Below, piece after piece: positions 54,324 through 64,000 of a stretch of 64,000 nucleotides of DNA. Source of the DNA: Nitrospirota bacterium (GTDB taxonomy: Bacteria > Nitrospirota > UBA9217); the NCBI GenBank assembly GCA_963840455.1, contig CAWIYV010000014.1, forward strand, positions 1 to 64,000, written 5' to 3'. A program made the position numbers and the translations under genes. Position 1 is the first letter of the stretch, and each line of letters begins with the position of its first letter. The notes beneath the pieces were generated by a model. That model was given only the letters and a program-made list of their open reading frames with translations. It did no database searches and was not told the DNA's origin.

Positions 54324-55637
<1,314 letters not shown>

Positions 55638-55808
55638 CTCCATGCAAGGTTCAACGTTCAAGGTCTAAGGTCAAAACAGCATATCGTCGAGGCGAGTGGC
55701 AGTTGTTCTGCCGGTTCGAACATGGAACCAGGAACATTGATTCGCTGTCATATTTATTGACAACGTCACCGCTTCTTTGCTAATATACGCCTCTCGCAGC
55801 GGTGCAGC

Positions 55809-55884
55809 GGGCCGGTAGCTCAGTTGGTAGAGCACCGCCCTTTTAAGGCGGGTGTCCTGGGTTCGAATCCCAGCCGGCTCACCA
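55809..55884 (+). tRNA. tRNA-Lys (TTT)
   Basis: Cloverleaf; ccgcc-ctTTTaa-ggcgg; GTTCGAATC; CCA end; TTGACA/TAATAT promoter upstream. Confidence 0.96.
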
Positions 55885-56008
55885 GTTACCTTCGGTATTG
55901 GAAATTGTAAAGTGCAAATTGGAAATTGAAAATAAGGTTCCGGCAGTCCATCTGAGCAATTTGCATGTTGAAATTTTCAATCTGCAATTTTCAATAATCT
56001 GTAAGCAC

Positions 56009-56086
56009 GTCCCCATCGTCTAGCCCGGCCCAGGACACCGCCCTTTCACGGCGATAACGGGGGTTCGAATCCCCCTGGGGACGCCA
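56009..56086 (+). tRNA. tRNA-Glu (TTC)
   Basis: GTCCCCA/TGGGGAC acceptor stem; ctTTCac loop; CCA end; terminator at about 56096-56121. Confidence 0.96.
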
Positions 56087-56267
56087 ATCAAACCAAAGGA
56101 GCTGCTATTGCAGCTCCTTTTCTTTATTGCGTCCCTGTCCCGTCGCGGGCCATCGCCGGTTCACGGCGCAAACGAAGGTGTAAGCGCTCAGATGAAGAGG
56201 CTTCGCGCTTCGTCGTTCAAGGTGAAAAGAGTGTTAGGTATGCCGGTTGCTCCGGCATATACGATCT

Positions 56268-56514
56268 AATCCCCCTGGGGACGCCCATCCAATCCAAAGA
56301 GCCACGGCATTTGCCGCGGCTCTTTTTTTGTCCCTCTTAGTGATCCATCACGTCCATACCCCGAAAATGCCCCGGCAGTATCCTTGTCAAATGGATGATT
56401 TTATAGTACGCTAATCCAAAGAACAGAGATGAAGTCCGACCAAATCATAATGCCCGAACTTCTTCGGGATAGACTTGCATAACTCAATCTTTAAGTCTGA
56501 CCCCATAGGGCACC
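56268..56514 (+). repeat. About 245-bp direct repeat, copy 1 (tRNA-Glu 3' 18-mer, terminator, downstream DNA)
   Basis: Nearly identical to 59784-60021. Confidence 0.92.
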
Positions 56515-56651
56515 CTTGGAGTAATCAAGACCTAAAGCAGAGCATGATTGCGAAATTTTATGAGCAGCGAAAAACTCTGTTAGCATCACGACAAATTATT
56601 ACGTGCATAGCCCAGTTGGACGAGAATCTACAGCTCATAGATCGACTGATT

Positions 56652-56760
56652 ATGAAATATAGAGAGCTCAAAAAGTTTATTGAAAAGAACATGCGGATGG
56701 CGCATGTATATCAGCCTGTAATGCTCATGACGCTGCTAGAGAATGGTGGTAAGTGCCTTG
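56652..56760 (+). pseudogene. N-terminal fragment resembling HIT/HNH-domain proteins
   Basis: LKKFI...MRMAHVYQPVML.TLL.NGGK recalled as the conserved N-terminus of that family; no nuclease domain follows. Confidence 0.55.
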
Positions 56761-56851
56761 AGCGGCTGGCAAGGCATAACCCAATGGGTAATATAAATAC
56801 TAGTATCTATAGATATTCAAAATACGTTTTTATTGCTAACGAGGGGAGAAT

Positions 56852-57916
56852 ATGACAGATAAATCAAATGATCCTAATAATAAAGCAGAGAATAAAAAAG
56901 AAGAGAATCAACCAAGCGGAAATATTCATTCTAATATTTCGAAATGGATTTATTATAATACGTCAAGCAGTAGTTATTCTCCGTCTTTAAGCTCGCTTTA
57001 CAATTATATCAATAGTAGCAATAAAAGTTGGTCAGCAATACAATGGCCAGACGAAGAAATTACTGTAAAGACGAAAAAGCTATATGAGACTATCGAGACA
57101 CTTCGTAAAGATGTAGAGGAAACTGCGAAAAAATTTCAGCAAGCCAAAAGTGAGCATGCTCAAAAAGACAGTGATATTTTGCAACTTAACGGGAAAATTG
57201 CCGAACTGTCTAAGAAGGAAAAACTCGGATTCTTGCTCTCACGAGTCAATGAAGCAGCTCAAAAATTATTGCTAGAGAACGAGGACTTTCAGAAAAAGTT
57301 CTTAGAGGAAAGCGAATGTGACACATTCGTTATGTCAGTTGATATTCGTAGGTCTACAGAGCTGATGTCGAAAGCTAGAAGTCCTGAACAATTTGCTCGC
57401 TTTATGACAACATTATGTAATGATCTTGAAGATGTTGTAAAAGATTGCTTTGGTGTCTTCGATAAATTTACAGGCGATGGCATTCTAGCCTTTTTCCCAG
57501 ATTTTTTTTCAGGCGCCGATTCGGGTTATTATGCGATAAAAGCGGCCAATCTCTGCCACAAACAATTTCAATTAAGGTACAAAGAATTTCGAAGTTCATT
57601 TAAGTCAGTTTTAACAGACGTTGGCCTAGGTATTGGGATTGATTATGGCCAAGCTCATCTTGTCCAAATAGCCGGCGGTTTAACTGTTGTTGGTTCGCCA
57701 GTGGTATACGCGTGCCGTATGAGCGGTGCTCCGGCTGATTCAACATATCTTAACCAGCCGGGCTATGAAAAAATAAGTGAGAAGTACAGTGAGTATTGCT
57801 TCTTGAAAGAGACAAAGATTGACATTAAGAATGAAGGGACAACGTTGGCCTACGATATACGTCTTAATGGGAAAGATTATAGACCCGAGGCGCCTACGTG
57901 GCTTAGCAGTAAATAG
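56852..57916 (+). CDS. Class III nucleotide cyclase with N-terminal coiled coil
   Basis: SVDIRRST, DKFTGDG, GIGIDYG, TVVGSPVVYACR. Confidence 0.9.
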   Translation: MTDKSNDPNNKAENKKEENQPSGNIHSNISKWIYYNTSSSSYSPSLSSLYNYINSSNKSWSAIQWPDEEITVKTKKLYETIETLRKDVEETAKKFQQAKSEHAQKDSDILQLNGKIAELSKKEKLGFLLSRVNEAAQKLLLENEDFQKKFLEESECDTFVMSVDIRRSTELMSKARSPEQFARFMTTLCNDLEDVVKDCFGVFDKFTGDGILAFFPDFFSGADSGYYAIKAANLCHKQFQLRYKEFRSSFKSVLTDVGLGIGIDYGQAHLVQIAGGLTVVGSPVVYACRMSGAPADSTYLNQPGYEKISEKYSEYCFLKETKIDIKNEGTTLAYDIRLNGKDYRPEAPTWLSSK

Positions 57917-57993
57917 GCTAATTGCAAAGGTGAGGAGTATGGTCCTGATAATAGCGTTAATGCCAGTGAGTATAAAATTGCGGGGGCTTCTAA

Positions 57994-58785
57994 ATGATAA
58001 AAGAATATTATGAATCATTTAAGGATAATATATTGAGCAAATCTACTAATCCATTCTTTGGCTCCTTAATTATTGTTTGGTCATTCCATAATTGGAGATT
58101 TCTATATACTATATTTAATTTCCTTAAGGAAACACCTAATGAGGATCGAATTGCATTTATCGCGAGCTATTTATATTCAGGCAAGTTTTTGCCGAATTTA
58201 GGCTGGTGTATTGTTTTCGCGTTTATAGTGCTTATCATTTCCTATTTCCTGCTTAATTTGTCTAGGCTAATTATAAACTTATATGAAAAAGTATTAACGC
58301 CATTTGTATACAAAATTACAGATCAAAGTTCCATAGTCTTAAAAGAGGATTATTTAAAACTTAATGAGGAAAAGAATAAATTGGTAGAAAAACTTGAAGC
58401 TGAACGAGGGGCTAGGCTAAATGTACAAGCCGAAAGAGATAGTCTCGAGATAAAATTAAGCCAGATGCAAAATGCTAAAAATGTGAATGATATTGCTACT
58501 ACTACTGTTACTCCGCCACCGAGTAAAAGTGATATTAATAAATATGACAAAGAAAGCGCGATTATTTCCAAGATAGAAGAAGAAAAGCTCTTAAATGCAT
58601 TCGATAATATAATCGAAAAAATATCAAATATAGATGCAATATACGATAATGAGCCTGGAGTTAGATATTTTTCAAAACTCGGTCTTATCACAAAAGGTAC
58701 CTATATTGATCAAAATCAGTATAATTATTCTTTCACGAAATTAGGAGATAGTGTAAAAACATATTATCTTGATAACTATCTTTGA
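57994..58785 (+). CDS. Two-TM, coiled-coil hypothetical protein
   Basis: NPFFGSLIIVW..NW, second hydrophobic helix, heptad region; AT-rich. Confidence 0.85.
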   Translation: MIKEYYESFKDNILSKSTNPFFGSLIIVWSFHNWRFLYTIFNFLKETPNEDRIAFIASYLYSGKFLPNLGWCIVFAFIVLIISYFLLNLSRLIINLYEKVLTPFVYKITDQSSIVLKEDYLKLNEEKNKLVEKLEAERGARLNVQAERDSLEIKLSQMQNAKNVNDIATTTVTPPPSKSDINKYDKESAIISKIEEEKLLNAFDNIIEKISNIDAIYDNEPGVRYFSKLGLITKGTYIDQNQYNYSFTKLGDSVKTYYLDNYL

Positions 58786-58883
58786 ATAAGAAATAATATA
58801 CGTACGATGGTTCTTCACTTTAATTAGCTATCTTGTGCACGAACAGCTTTTGAATAGAATAAATCAACTTAATGCTGCATCTG

Positions 58884-59079
58884 AAACGTCACCAAAACGT
58901 AACCGAAATTAACTTACAGCAGATGAATGGCAGAATAATACTGGACAGAATAGAAGTGTGTAACGCATTGATTAGCACTATTAAAGCGAAAAAAAGCAGG
59001 TAAGAGACCCGGTTAGTAAAATCGTTAAGTTCTAACTTTCACGGCGATAGCAGGGTTTCGAATCCCCTCGAAGACGCCA
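58884..59079 (+). mobile_element. attR-like site 1 (arm repeats, IHF site, degenerate 44-bp tRNA-Glu 3' copy)
   Basis: AAACGTcACC-AAAACGTAACC; TAACGCATTGATT; 59036-59079 matches 56043-56086 at 37/44. Confidence 0.8.
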
Positions 59080-59178
59080 GCCAATCCAGGGACATGCTGG
59101 TATTCGGTAGCGCATCAACACAACCGATACCGATTTATGGTAGAATTAATCATTCGGTAAGTGCAAAGGGGGTAGGCC

Positions 59179-59532
59179 ATGAAGAAAATCGTATTTGCAG
59201 TAATTGCAGTCCTTTTATCAATTGGTGCGGCTCAAGCTCAGGATTATTTGCACGGCAAGTCCGGAACCACATATCAAAATATTGGAAACACAACCTACGG
59301 CTCGGATGGTTCAACTTATCAAAAAATTGGCAATACGACATACGGGAATGATGGGAACACTTCCCAACGGATTGGGAACACAACTTATCATGGAGATGGA
59401 TCGACATCTCAGCAAATTGGGAACACACTTTACAATTCCAATGGTAGCACCGTTCAAAAAATTGGCAATACAACGTACGGTTCTGATGGAACCAACTGCC
59501 AGAAAATAGGCAATACAACGTACTGTAACTAA
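59179..59532 (+). CDS. Secreted protein made of six 15-aa QxIGNTTYGxDG repeats
   Basis: Signal peptide; repeats visible in protein and DNA. Confidence 0.85.
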   Translation: MKKIVFAVIAVLLSIGAAQAQDYLHGKSGTTYQNIGNTTYGSDGSTYQKIGNTTYGNDGNTSQRIGNTTYHGDGSTSQQIGNTLYNSNGSTVQKIGNTTYGSDGTNCQKIGNTTYCN

Positions 59533-59608
59533 ATTGTCTGATATTTGCCTCTCTACACTGACATCTGATGAGAAAATGTGTGTGCAAACGGGTATAGCTA
59601 GTAATTGA

Positions 59609-59802
59609 AAACGTAACCAAAACGTAACCGAAACTAACATACGGGGTAGAATAACAAGAAAATACTTGAATGGGCAGAAGCCAATAACTCTTTGATTATT
59701 GCTAATAAACAGAAAAACGCAGGTAAGAGGCCCATTTAGTAAAATTGTTAAGGCCCAACTTTCACGGCGATAACGGGGGTTCGAATCCCCCTGGGGACGC
59801 CA
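59609..59802 (+). mobile_element. attR-like site 2 (arm repeats, IHF site, perfect 44-bp tRNA-Glu 3' copy)
   Basis: AAACGTAACC twice; TAACTCTTTGATT; 59759-59802 identical to 56043-56086. Confidence 0.88.
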
Positions 59803-60021
59803 ATCCAAAGAGCCACGGCAACTGCCGCGGCTCTTTTTTTTCTCCCTCTTAGTGATCCATCACGTGCATCCCCCGAAAATGCCCCGGCAGTATCCTTGTC
59901 AAATGGATGATTTTATAGTACGCTAATCCAAAGAACAGAGATGAAGTCCAACCAAATGCCCGAACTTCTTCGGGATAGACCTGCATAAGTCAATCTTTAA
60001 GTCTGACCCCATAGAGCACCC
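59784..60021 (+). repeat. About 240-bp direct repeat, copy 2
   Basis: Matches 56268-56514 with a few substitutions and small indels. Confidence 0.92.
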
Positions 60022-61312
60022 ATCCTCGCAAAGAAAGATGCGAAGAAAGCTGGGAAAGCAGTTCCCTCTAGGGATGTGGATGATAAATTTCTGATCGCGG
60101 ACAAAAGCAATAATAAAGACAAAATGACATTGAGTGATTTCATTTATCATCATGTCTCATGGTCATACGACCTGTGGCATATGAGACGCTTTGGCTTAGT
60201 CTTGCCAAATCCAGAGGTGATTAATCAACAGGATAGTGTATTAGTTGGCGGCTTTTCATATATCTACGAAGACAAAATACTTGATGCGATGCGGTCGTCT
60301 GAATTCCTTCTTAAACGAGAAGGCGGTGGACGCAGAGGCAAGCGATAAACATGCAGACTCTAATTCCTATGATAGCGCATGCTAGGACCCTGCGCATTCC
60401 CTCGGTTACTTACGGGGCGCTATATCCTAAAATACGCACTCCTCAGTACCGCGTTCACGTTTAATTTTCAACCAGTAGACTGCACCTCTTTTGATAAACC
60501 GTCCTATGCAATCATGTAGGTGTTCATCACAGTGCCTAGGATCTGAAAGCGTCGAAGAATATCGTTTGAAATATGCAGTGTCTGATTCTTCCTGTACTCG
60601 TTGAAGCTTCCATTCATCGCAATATTCAATATTTCATTCAGTAATTCGTAATCTCCCTAACAACCAGACGGTATTGTTTTAATTGCTGTGGTGTTTCGTG
60701 ATAACTGGTTGTCATCGTTAGGATGACAGGTAAGGGAAGGGCCTTATTTAGTCACTGATGATGCCTGTTTATGGCTGTCTACTTGACAATTACTTGACAG
60801 CGAATCTAAAGAGCAATCTAAGCGGGTCCATCGTGCTGTTAAAAGCGGAAAAGCAATTAAATATTGTTAAGAAATTGTTTTTAATTATTTGTATTGACCT
60901 TGACAGAATATCAGCAGCCTGTTAGCCTTGTAATACTTACTTCCTACTGCTTGCCTCTTATTTAACTTGCCACATTCTTTATTCTGTTTTTTCTCTGATA
61001 TTTTCTTTTTCTGAGAAAACCGAACGGGTGTTTTTGCGTTTCAAGTATCAACACTTTTAATCTATTTATTATTTTAATAGGACTCATTCTATCAGCCATT
61101 ATCTATAGCTCTGCGGTATGGCCAATTCATTTTAATAACCAGTATTTCAAATCAGAGCGTTCATGATCATGTGTTGTACCAAGTGGTTCGTTTCTTTCAT
61201 TGATTCTTACCAACAAGTACTTTCAATGCTGATATTGCGTGATATTAGAAGTTTAGGTGTTGCGCGTGGTATATACGAGCAATAAGGAAATATAATTTTG
61301 GGAGGTGTTGCA

Positions 61313-64000
61313 GTGAAAAAATTAATATCGATAGCAGGAATGCTCGTAATAGTTTTATGCGCAATATCCGCGTGGGCGGGTCCATTCTCGGCCACGAATC
61401 CAATGACTTCAGCAAGGTTTCTTCACACCGCAACCTTACTCCCGAATGGCAAGGTGCTGATCGTGGGGGGATACAATAACTCTATAACCTTTAATACCGC
61501 CGAAGTATACGATCCCGCAACCGGAACCTTCACAGCCACTGCAGGGAATATGATGTCAGCGAGGCATTATCACACCGCAACCTTACTCCCGAATGGCAAG
61601 GTGCTGATCGTGGGGGGGCGAAACGGGGACATTTGGTTGAATACCGCCGAAGTGTACGACCCACAAACAGGAATCTTCACAACTACAACAGGGATTATGA
61701 CTTCAGTAAGGAATAATCACACAGCAACGCTGCTCCCGAATGGCAAAGTGCTAATCACGGGGGGGTGGGGTGGCAACAGCTTCTTGAATACTGCGGAAGT
61801 ATACGACCCCGCAACAGGAATTTTCACTGCCACGATGGGAATCATGACCTCAGCGAGGGGGAATCACACTGCAACCCTTCTCCCGAATGACAAGGTATTG
61901 ATTGCAGGGGGATACAGCAACACCGATTTAAAGACTGCCGAAGTGTACGACCCTGAAACTGGAACCTTCACAGCCACTGCGGGGAATATGACTTCAGCGC
62001 GGTCTTATCACACAGCGACCCTCCTCCCGAATGGCAAGGTATTGATCGCGGGAGGATGGGGCAACTATTCAGTAAGCACCGCCGAAGTGTACGACCCCAC
62101 AAACGGAATCTTCACAGCCACGGCGGGGAATATGACTTCAGTACGGAATCAGCATTCATCAACCCTGCTTCCCAATGGCAAGGTACTGATAACAGGGGGG
62201 CACAATGGCAGCATCTGGTTGAATACCGCCGAAGTATACGATTCCGTAACTGGAACCTTCACAGTCACTGCGGGGAATATGATATCAGCAAGAGGTTGTC
62301 AAAGCGCAACTCTGCTCCCGAATGGCAAGGTACTGGTCGCTGGTGGGCACGGCAACAGCGTTTACTTGGATACTGCCGAAGTATACGACTATGCCTTCGG
62401 AACTTTCACATCCACGGCAGGGAATATGACTTCAGTAATAGAACCTCGCACCGCAACGCTGCTCCCAAATGGCAAGGTATTAGTAGTAGATGGGGCTGGG
62501 AGGCTTACCGCCGAATTGAACGACCCTTTAACCGGAACCTTCACAGTTACGGGGAATATGGCTTCATATAGGAGGGGAACGTTCACCGCAACGCTCCTCC
62601 CAAATGGCAAGGTGCTGGTCGCGGGGGGAGGCCAAGATTTAGTAGGCGGCGTGAATAGAGCCGATGTGTATGATCCCGTAACAGGAACCTTCACAGCCAC
62701 TGCAGGGAACATGACTGGAGGAAGGGGTACTCACACTGCAACACTTCTCCCGAATGGCAATGTGTTATTAGCGGGGGGGATGGCCAGCGATTGGTTGGCT
62801 ACCGCGGAAGTGTATGACCCCACAACCGGAATCTTCACAGCCACGGGGAAGATGCATTCAGCAAGGGGTGCTCACACCGCAACTCTGCTCCCGAACGGCA
62901 AGGTATTGATTGCCGGCGGGATGTATGGTTCCTATGGCCAAATTAACTTAAATACCGCTGAAGTGTACGACCCTGAAACTGGAACCTTCACTGACACGGG
63001 GAATATGACATCTGAGAGATCTTATTCATCCGCAACGCTGCTCCCGAATGGCAATGTATTGGTTGCAGGTGGGGCAAGAGGCGGAACTGCGGAACTGTAT
63101 GACCCTACCACCGGAATCTTCGCAAGCACAGGGAACATGACTTCAGCAAGATTTCAACATAGTGCAACATTACTTTCGAATGGTAAGGTGTTGATCGCGG
63201 GGGGCGACTATCCCGTTAATACCGCCGAAGTGTACGACCCAGCAACAGGAGTCTTCACAGCCACGACAGAGAATATGACTTCAGCAAGGGGTGCTCACAC
63301 CGCAACCTTACTCCTGAATGGTAAAGTGCTGATCATGGGGGGGAATTTCTCGAATACCGCTGAAGTGTACGACGCTACCCTTGGTTTTTCCGATGCATGG
63401 CGCCCCGTTGTTGATCCTATCTCTTCAGCCATAATAATAGGCAAGTCACTCTCGATCACCGGCAGCGGTTTTACTGGCTATGGAAACTCCGAAGGCTCCA
63501 GCGGAGCGACGAATAATTCTGCCACCAATTTCCCCCTGGCTCAGCTCAGAAGCATTGACAGTGGACAGACGCTCTGGCTCCAGACCGCGCCGGTTGCAAA
63601 TGGTTCTACTGTAACATCAATTACGACAATGCCTGTTGAAAATTTTCCGGCGGGTCCTTCCTTGCTTACAGTGTTTGTCAATGGTATTCCTAGCGTCTCC
63701 AGCTACGTCACAGTTGAAAATATTTCTGAGACCACAGGTGTTTATTCCATCACGGCCAGCTCCAGTACAGGTGGCAGCATCTCGCCGTCGGGGAACTTGA
63801 ATGTCAATGCAGGTGGCACTGCGTCATTCACCATCACCCCAAATCCGGGGTACCAAGTGCTGAGTGTAATCGTTGATGGTGCGAACAAAGGGGCGGTAAA
63901 CAGTTATAGTTTTACGAACGTAGCGGGGAACCACACAATCAGCACCTTTTTCAAGCCGATTACCTATACGATCACGGCAACGGCAGGAGCGAACGGCGCC
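61313..64000 (+). CDS. Secreted kelch-repeat protein (14 blades) with C-terminal InlB-B/Flg_new-like repeats; runs off the window
   Basis: GTG after ggaggt; signal peptide; 14 x TATLLPNGKVL..GG..AEVYDP; YSITAS..GGSISPSG..TITPN.GY; same frame at window end; absent from ORF track because no stop is reached. Confidence 0.9.
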   Translation, partial: MKKLISIAGMLVIVLCAISAWAGPFSATNPMTSARFLHTATLLPNGKVLIVGGYNNSITFNTAEVYDPATGTFTATAGNMMSARHYHTATLLPNGKVLIVGGRNGDIWLNTAEVYDPQTGIFTTTTGIMTSVRNNHTATLLPNGKVLITGGWGGNSFLNTAEVYDPATGIFTATMGIMTSARGNHTATLLPNDKVLIAGGYSNTDLKTAEVYDPETGTFTATAGNMTSARSYHTATLLPNGKVLIAGGWGNYSVSTAEVYDPTNGIFTATAGNMTSVRNQHSSTLLPNGKVLITGGHNGSIWLNTAEVYDSVTGTFTVTAGNMISARGCQSATLLPNGKVLVAGGHGNSVYLDTAEVYDYAFGTFTSTAGNMTSVIEPRTATLLPNGKVLVVDGAGRLTAELNDPLTGTFTVTGNMASYRRGTFTATLLPNGKVLVAGGGQDLVGGVNRADVYDPVTGTFTATAGNMTGGRGTHTATLLPNGNVLLAGGMASDWLATAEVYDPTTGIFTATGKMHSARGAHTATLLPNGKVLIAGGMYGSYGQINLNTAEVYDPETGTFTDTGNMTSERSYSSATLLPNGNVLVAGGARGGTAELYDPTTGIFASTGNMTSARFQHSATLLSNGKVLIAGGDYPVNTAEVYDPATGVFTATTENMTSARGAHTATLLLNGKVLIMGGNFSNTAEVYDATLGFSDAWRPVVDPISSAIIIGKSLSITGSGFTGYGNSEGSSGATNNSATNFPLAQLRSIDSGQTLWLQTAPVANGSTVTSITTMPVENFPAGPSLLTVFVNGIPSVSSYVTVENISETTGVYSITASSSTGGSISPSGNLNVNAGGTASFTITPNPGYQVLSVIVDGANKGAVNSYSFTNVAGNHTISTFFKPITYTITATAGANGA

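Follow-up and report, generated by a model that had tools for sequence, protein, structure and literature searches.

Integrative and conjugative elements (ICEs), integrative mobilisable elements (IMEs) and cis-mobilisable elements (CIMEs) can occur in tandem. According to the sections of PMC5704250 devoted to such tandems, site-specific integration, loss of the integration and transfer genes and arrival of the next element at the regenerated target produce arrays of relics separated by att repeats. For islands in tRNA genes, the parts of the Islander survey that deal with island ends and tandems (PMC4383910) use the regenerated tRNA gene and the displaced 3' fragment as end marks (anticodon-centred class A, 2083 islands) and report 125 tandem arrays with 2 or more members and 4 with 3 or more, each member being required to have its own integrase. 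In the sections on tycheposons of the study of Prochlorococcus islands (bioRxiv 10.1101/2020.12.28.424599), new elements arrive at a tRNA gene and push the older ones inward, and the islands contain degenerate elements, fragmented integrases, partial tRNAs and defence cargo. Here, we analyse a locus of this type, at the tRNA-Glu(UUC) gene of a Nitrospirota metagenome-assembled genome (MAG; 4.03 Mb, denoted G000, whereas the other G numbers denote genomes of the same family).

The window, that is, the whole stretch of DNA analysed, covers positions 1-64,000 of a 597-kb contig (CAWIYV010000014.1, also cited as C14); pieces of the array outside the window were located by BLAST of array pieces against the whole G000 genome and are given in contig coordinates. 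A preliminary description had singled out positions 56009-60021. We consider it likely that this region is the tRNA-proximal part of a tandem array of decayed integrative elements, CIME-like relics that were serially inserted at the anticodon loop of tRNA-Glu(UUC). The array spans contig positions 56087-74255 (~18 kb), reaching past both the region first described and the window, and contains five displaced tRNA-Glu pieces, three attachment modules and one integrase remnant of 26 residues. The G+C content of its units is 0.29-0.45, compared with ~0.6 in the core genome to either side.

tRNA-Glu halves and attachment modules

The integration target, tRNA-Glu(UUC) at 56009-56086 (ARAGORN; Rfam tRNA, 54.7 bits), is the sole intact copy in the genome and follows purA and tRNA-Lys (55809-55884); the tRNAs, cores, modules, flanks and genes described here within the window are all on the plus strand. 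Core c0, its last 44 bp (56043-56086), includes the anticodon loop from its first base onward, with the anticodon at 56045-56047. The 3' part of the gene recurs at 56268-56285 (18 bp), 59036-59079 (core c2, 37/44) and 59759-59802 (core c3, 44/44), as previously reported; repeat comparison, complemented for c2 by base-by-base reading, reproduced all these coordinates and the start of both 44-bp copies at the position corresponding to tRNA base 56043. A degenerate tRNA-Glu-like gene, c1 (56129-56286), ends in the 18-bp copy. Beyond the window, there are a perfect 46-bp core, c4 (contig 72612-72657), and a split core, c5 (contig 74002-74255), behind which the core genes resume with a response regulator containing a PilZ domain. 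The cores at 59036, 59759, contig 72612 and contig 74002 are in direct orientation, and the first base of each corresponds to position 56043 in the loop.

These cores delimit five units. Unit U1 (56087-56286) consists of a terminator-like hairpin, T1 (56090-56125, an inverted repeat followed by a T run), and the pseudo-tRNA-Glu c1. Unit U2 (56287-59035) carries a flanking repeat (flank A), a cyclase gene pair and module m1, and is closed by c2. The 723-bp unit U3 (59080-59758), closed by c3, encompasses a gene for a 117-residue protein and module m2. Unit U4 (59803-72611) contains the second copy of the flanking repeat (flank B), genes for two Kelch-repeat proteins and a P arm with two copies of TTGTGTCCA, and is closed by c4. 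Finally, unit U5 (contig 72658-74001) includes a terminator, a AACGTAGC/AACGTAGT motif pair, the C-terminal integrase remnant, an open reading frame (ORF) of 151 codons and module m3, with the split core c5 at its end.

Two more tRNA-Glu 3' pieces are present on other contigs of G000, one on the minus strand at C10:68699-68746, which ARAGORN calls as a 72-nt tRNA with a misplaced anticodon, and one at C9:279275-279432, which retains the last 21 nt of an m3-like module. There is no tRNA-Glu 5' half near either, and they could have been left behind by a rearrangement or by elements that integrated at other sites.

The modules, each of ~195 bp including the core, share one plan: two tandem AAACGTNACC arm-type sites, a consensus binding sequence of integration host factor (IHF), a CAGGTAAGAG block and then the 44-bp 3' half of tRNA-Glu. 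In m1 (58884-59035), the arm sites are at 58884-58904, the IHF consensus at 58961-58973 and the block at 58997-59006; in m2 (59609-59758), the corresponding positions are 59609-59629, 59685-59697 and 59720-59729. The tandem AAACGT(C/A)ACC pairs noted earlier are indeed found at the stated distances upstream of the cores, 152 bp (start at 58884) and 150 bp (start at 59609), and are far from a common feature of the genome: AAACGTNAC occurs 53 times, and the only pairs less than 30 bp apart are these two. The IHF consensus, WATCAANNNNTTR, was likewise recovered on the minus strand in both modules, and the shared block precedes the core by exactly 29 nt in each. Matches to WATCAANNNNTTR are enriched in the window (7 against 0.73 expected; none of 100 shuffled sequences reached 7), and the consensus is found at the same position in 6 of 7 aligned modules, the exception being that of G014. 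Module m3 (contig 73853-74001) was detected by BLAST against the genome, and all three modules retain two arm sites, the IHF consensus, the block at the 29-nt distance, and the core over its first 14-22 bases.

The identity between the modules is 76% for m1 and m2, 76% for m1 and m3, and 82% for m2 and m3, and in the module alignment, conservation is centred on the arm sites, the IHF consensus and the CAGGTAAGAG block. With this mutual identity and this distribution of conservation, the modules are independent arrivals. The AAACGTAACC pairs are candidate integrase-binding sites, and WATCAANNNNTTR is a candidate IHF-binding site. G000 encodes an IHF-alpha-like protein (120.9 bits, above the cut-off) and an IHF-beta-like protein (109.8 bits, just below the cut-off), which makes the use of IHF plausible. 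An Rfam scan of 55500-61000 at E<=5 yielded two tRNAs and otherwise only sub-threshold noise; neither the modules nor the flanks nor the T-loop insertion of c1, described below, are covered by a known RNA family.

The module family is small in public collections, and the sample is insufficient for statistics. The pattern CAGGTAAGAG-N29-CTTTCACGG, which joins the block to the core, retrieved two records from the genome contig collection, both from Nitrospirota MAGs, and seven stretches from metagenome contigs, of which two (L067 and L069) have module-like sequence upstream and five appear to be chance matches.

Integrases and the same locus in related genomes

The absence of an integrase between the tRNA-Glu copies, pointed out in the preliminary description, was corroborated by agreement of hidden Markov model (HMM) searches and tblastn; there is no PF00589 match anywhere in the array, and all that tblastn recovered is the 26-residue C-terminal remnant in U5 (contig 72721-72798). 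A search of the G000 genome for a cognate integrase found no intact one. The only two full tyrosine recombinases of G000, at C1:189034 and C9:176679, are distant from the array and 23-30% identical to the island integrases of the relatives. The motif pair of U5, at contig 72700-72720, adjoins the integrase remnant, and hence, by sequence, both arms are present in this unit. In U2 and U3, no AACGT-type sites, the P' arm sites on which recombination of the lambda type depends, were found within 260 nt after the left cores.

We searched 64 genomes of the family, G000 included, with one genome per species among the relatives sampled. In G018, the closest relative, the tRNA-Glu locus is split over contigs. 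Four of the 64 genomes carry the module; besides G000, these are G035, G014 and G055, with 70-73% identity, and all three share the order purA, tRNA-Lys, tRNA-Glu, island, module and displaced tRNA-Glu 3' half. A tyrosine integrase next to the arm repeats, which the preliminary description had proposed to look for, was found in relatives, as exemplified by the 9.8-kb unit of G035. This unit encodes a 362-residue tyrosine integrase next to the tRNA (PF00589, 1.4e-36) and a 955-residue TrwC relaxase and thus is an IME. In its left arm, behind the tRNA and terminator, the tandem motif (...CGTAACCAAAACGTAACC) overlaps the last codons of the integrase gene. The left arm of G014 unit 1 has two copies of AACGTAGC and a 65-residue C-terminal integrase remnant; that of G055 unit 2, a degenerate motif pair and a 55-residue C-terminal remnant; and that of G056 unit 2, an ACGTAGC pair and an integrase of at least 276 residues. 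In G035 as well as in G014, the motif variant (AAC or AGC) is identical on both arms.

The motif thus belongs to an AACGTA family, with AACGTA(A/G)C pairs both before the cores and on the left arms of the relatives. Because the same arm motif adjoins the integrase on the left arm of the relatives, we read the modules as attR P arms. This bears out the earlier interpretation of the modules as arms of attachment sites used by tyrosine integrases of the lambda type, with crossover in the tRNA-Glu anticodon loop: going by sequence, the ~195-bp modules are identified as relic attR P arms of one element family.

Other families of arm repeats are found with the same core. TGTGCTA repeats flank G055 unit 1 on both arms, and the integrase of this unit is 38% identical to that of G035; TGTGATA repeats are present in G056 unit 1; GTAGTAGA repeats, in G021, G022 and G014 unit 2; and TGTGTCC repeats, before c4 in the G000 contig and after the tRNA in G018. 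The tRNA-Glu locus accordingly appears as a hot spot for several integrase families that use one core.

From core to core, 15 units could be delimited in 9 genomes: four in G000, two each in G014, G055 and G047, and one each in G035, G022, G021, G042 and G056. The count does not include stretches truncated at a contig end or at the edge of the retrieved sequence, namely, G056 unit 2, the part of G055 behind its third core, and G018. Integrases were detected by HMM search in G000, G014, G055 and G035 and by tblastn with two integrase queries in the remaining genomes. Four units encode a full integrase (G035, G055 unit 1, G047 unit 2 and G056 unit 1), three contain a C-terminal remnant (G000 U5, G055 unit 2 and G014 unit 1), and eight have neither. 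With a full integrase in only 4 of the 15, decay is the common state of the units at tRNA-Glu.

The comparison of cassette content across relatives, also suggested at the outset, found the module next to unrelated cargo in every genome: when the four G000 units were compared by tblastx and blastn with 11 units of the relatives, matches were confined to the modules and the integrase remnant. As to the cargo of the relatives, G014 unit 1 (L011 14874-18372) carries a DUF4062-DnaB-like helicase gene followed by a 606-codon gene without a family match, likely a defence or addiction cargo, and G021:C35:2850-4330 includes two apparent toxin-antitoxin pairs, judged by eye.

Origin of the array

The serial insertion and decay that we favour would proceed as follows. 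Each incoming element would supply its own tRNA 3' half and terminator, restoring tRNA-Glu, and at each insertion, the former 3' half and everything behind it would be moved away from the tRNA. Deletion would later remove the integrase genes and the left (P') arms, so that the cargo remains, closed by the right (P) arm and a displaced tRNA half. In the tRNA-proximal unit, the 3' half would be kept by selection on the essential, single-copy tRNA-Glu, and the adjacent P' arm and integrase would be free to be lost; such selection on the one and none on the other would account for intact cores of 44-46 bp beside missing left arms. That the units look closed by modules is partly a matter of ascertainment because loss of a module together with its core merges two units. 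Of the two alternatives offered in the preliminary description, serially inserted islands that decayed but retained their right ends and an integron-like array of cassettes mobilised in trans, the analysis favours the former; against the latter stand the lack of a cognate integrase, of left-arm sites in U2 and U3 and of attC hairpins, as well as the existence of integrase-bearing relatives. In the absence of a cognate integrase, the array presumably cannot move by itself today, although the relic right ends might serve a family member that has just inserted, allowing composite circles to be excised (cis-mobilisation). The one public run that contains the stretch (contigs, 6% of sampled words) yielded 8 short pieces and no joint within the array, which has no bearing on mobility; a 268-nt contig of this run covers 58313-58580 with one difference.

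Several observations do not sit easily with such a history. Neither U2 nor U3 contains any integrase remnant, so that the origin of these two units by deletion is extrapolated from other units rather than seen. Furthermore, c2 differs from the live tRNA at seven positions. One paired change preserves a T-stem pair (G-C to A-T), and three changes recast the acceptor strand, from TGGGGAC to CGAAGAC, making pairing with the resident 5' half impossible. Core c2, therefore, cannot have functioned with the resident 5' half, which leaves a plain in-place history incomplete; it looks like a piece of the tRNA-Glu of another organism, and this would fit the arrival of m1, c2 and U3 within a composite element. 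The ~230-bp repeat of flanks A and B and the insertion-bearing pseudo-tRNA also call for events beyond simple serial integration.

These features of c2, namely, the compensated change in the T-stem and the foreign acceptor strand, are also what could be expected if the integrase-less units were still working cassettes, cis- or trans-mobilisable in the sense of CIMEs, with functional right-end sites that allow excision, movement or capture each time a new element brings in a cognate integrase, because these features suggest composite arrival of part of the array from another host. The parts of PMC5704250 on composite elements document the transfer of CIME-ICE composites, U5 has both arms, and the recognisable elements of all three modules are kept, down to the spacing of the CAGGTAAGAG block and the first bases of the core. 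We nevertheless consider this possibility unlikely: G000 has no cognate integrase, U2 and U3 lack P' arm sites after their left cores, and the conservation of the modules may be inherited from once-active elements rather than reflect present function. A specific version, to which we assign a similarly low probability, is that the orphan modules are working capture handles, such that an incoming AACGTA-family element recombines its left end with m1, m2 or m3 and leaves with cargo, for example, the Pycsar-like gene pair of U2. Were this the case, a whole family of mobilisable elements would draw on the array as a common, reshuffled stock of defence and surface genes, and c2 would be the trace of one composite transfer.

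Segmental duplication does occur at the locus, given that the ~230-bp flank is doubled with 92-93% identity and an insertion-bearing core is present three times in the genome. Conceivably, then, the modules themselves could be local duplicates of a single right end, generated by unequal crossing-over or replication slippage between the tRNA-like repeats. Such an origin is very improbable because the modules, 76-82% alike, are about as similar to those of other genera (69.9-76.3%), unrelated cargo separates the copies, their cores are not the same (37/44 against 44/44), and the unit between c3 and c4 is closed by a different arm-type family (two copies of TTGTGTCCA). Nor does a chance resemblance or an assembly artefact deserve more than a negligible probability: we found nothing in its favour, the core matches of 44 and 46 bp are exact, independent genomes and two metagenome contigs show the same module architecture, and collapse or mis-joining would not be expected with repeats as diverged as these.

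Under the serial insertion and decay of islands, which thus remains the preferred explanation, the locus provides a worked example, in a poorly studied Nitrospirota MAG lineage, of the growth of an island of defence and surface genes at a single tRNA gene. The comparison defines arm-type sites for several integrase families that share one core, namely, AACGTA(A/G)C, TGTGCTA/TGTGATA, GTAGTAGA and TGTGTCC. It also indicates that island finders that require an integrase would miss most of the units at this hot spot, where 4 of 15 carry one.

Cargo, repeats and comparison with known systems

The first gene of U2 (56852-57916, 354 codons) encodes a predicted class III nucleotide cyclase similar to PycC. 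The match is weak: the best hit is to PADLOC PycC (1.3e-11, over residues 81-271), with a further hit to the adenylate cyclase of PDB entry 2w01 (4.1e-5) and no Pfam cyclase domain at E<=0.01. The next gene (57994-58785) codes for a 263-residue protein with hydrophobic N-terminal segments and without a family match in Pfam, PADLOC or NCBIfam, a candidate effector partner of the cyclase. With moderate confidence, 56852-58785 can be considered a putative Pycsar-type pair. In Pycsar defence systems, a PycC-type cyclase adjoins an effector that combines a cyclic-nucleotide-binding domain with a membrane or TIR part. The gene of U3 (59179-59532) encodes a protein of 117 residues whose N-terminus resembles a signal peptide and which contains seven YG.DG..Q.IGNT repeats, mirrored in internal DNA repeats, again without a match in Pfam, PADLOC or NCBIfam. 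The part of U4 that follows flank B in the window (60022-64000) is low in G+C and contains an ORF of 90 codons (60076-60348) and a Kelch-repeat gene that starts at 61298 and runs past the window edge. The bulk of U4, from 61298 to contig position 71463, codes for two neighbouring, secreted-looking giants of 1739 and 1598 residues with many Kelch, NHL and InlB B-repeat domains.

Flanks A (56287-56515, with a terminator at 56297-56329 followed by ~190 bp) and B (59803-60021, at the left end of U4) form a direct repeat after two cores. The point where their likeness stops is marked by a 28-nt sequence of the repetitive extragenic palindromic (REP) type (56479-56507 and 59985-60013). In G047, the identical sequence forms the terminal inverted repeats on either side of an IS200-like gene of the RAYT (REP-associated tyrosine transposase) type; multiple copies, frequently located at contig ends, are present in 13 further family genomes. 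Given that flank A matches the left end of U4 and that the right end of U2 is of the AACGTA family, U2 may be a merger of two units. The flanks carry GTGATCCAT and CACGTCCAT (CACGTGCAT in flank B), which loosely resemble TTGTGTCCAT; with no closer resemblance than this, we did not count the flanks as a left arm of the TGTGTCC type.

The degenerate gene c1, delineated by repeat alignment and model R1, has a full homologous copy in G022; its positions 56139-56179 are 73% like tRNA positions 56024-56064, and an 85-nt insertion (56180-56264) follows the first T of the T-loop. Insertions of 85-130 nt occur at exactly the same place in other pseudo- or displaced tRNA-Glu pieces, at C14:74002-74111 and C9:279275-279432 in G000, G022:C14:47821-47951 and G021:C35:4550-4706; full-length insertion-bearing copies are found in 3 of the 64 family genomes, with three insertion-bearing cores within G000. 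The ends of the insertion are conserved (GTAAGYGC ... CTTCGTCGTTCARGG ... TACGATC), and it can form two hairpins with four pairs changed on both sides, a number reached in 9 of 500 shuffles. We rejected the insertion as an intron of a functional tRNA-Glu because model R1 matches pseudo- or displaced pieces alone, never an intact gene, and a weak match in G041 is unconvincing. In G019, a different, gene-bearing insertion begins at the same T-loop junction. The T-loop insertion may be the scar of an island that integrated in the T-loop or a small hairpin-ended element. Another repeat, an interspersed one of ~118 bp, is located at C14:74112-74229, where it splits the last displaced core, at C14:74498-74614 and at more than 40 further sites of G000. 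Dozens of copies, 85-94% identical, are present in all six genomes of the genus, a behaviour like that of a miniature inverted-repeat transposable element.

The likeness of the array to an integron is superficial and consists in a row of small promoter-less units, each closed by a recombination site; here, in contrast, the repeats are tRNA halves with long arms predicted to bind proteins. No IntI, attI or Pc was found nearby, no tyrosine recombinase lies within or beside the array, and, as regards attC hairpins, none of the nine inverted-repeat pairs detected in 55500-61000 is within a module. The search for phage satellites, such as phage-inducible chromosomal islands (PICIs) or P4-like elements, found no integrase, replication, helper-interference or packaging domain in any ORF of the units.

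In lambda-type attP and attR sites, arm-type sites are located ~150 bp from the core, with IHF between them, and the arm motif is present on both arms. The arrangement described here is the same by sequence, with the P' arm sites overlapping the last codons of the integrase gene.

Altogether, this is no new kind of mobile system, and the model of accretion and decay is already known. As in the CIMEs of the ICESt1 type of Streptococcus thermophilus, as presented in the relevant sections of PMC5704250, the array has lost the integration and transfer genes, and the intact relative is an IME. A CIME needs both attL and attR; U5 alone keeps both arms and would qualify, whereas in U2 and U3 just the right arm is left. 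The present case further differs in the Nitrospirota host, in the tRNA-Glu anticodon-loop target and in being known from its sequence. With the Islander islands, as defined in the pertinent parts of PMC4383910, it shares the end marks and the anticodon-centred site, but no unit of G000 would pass the integrase rule given there, so that arrays of this sort would go uncounted. The same model holds for the tycheposon islands, as described in the corresponding sections of bioRxiv 10.1101/2020.12.28.424599; the families of elements and the host phylum differ, and at the tRNA-Glu locus, the P-arm architecture is preserved to the extent that it can be aligned across genera.

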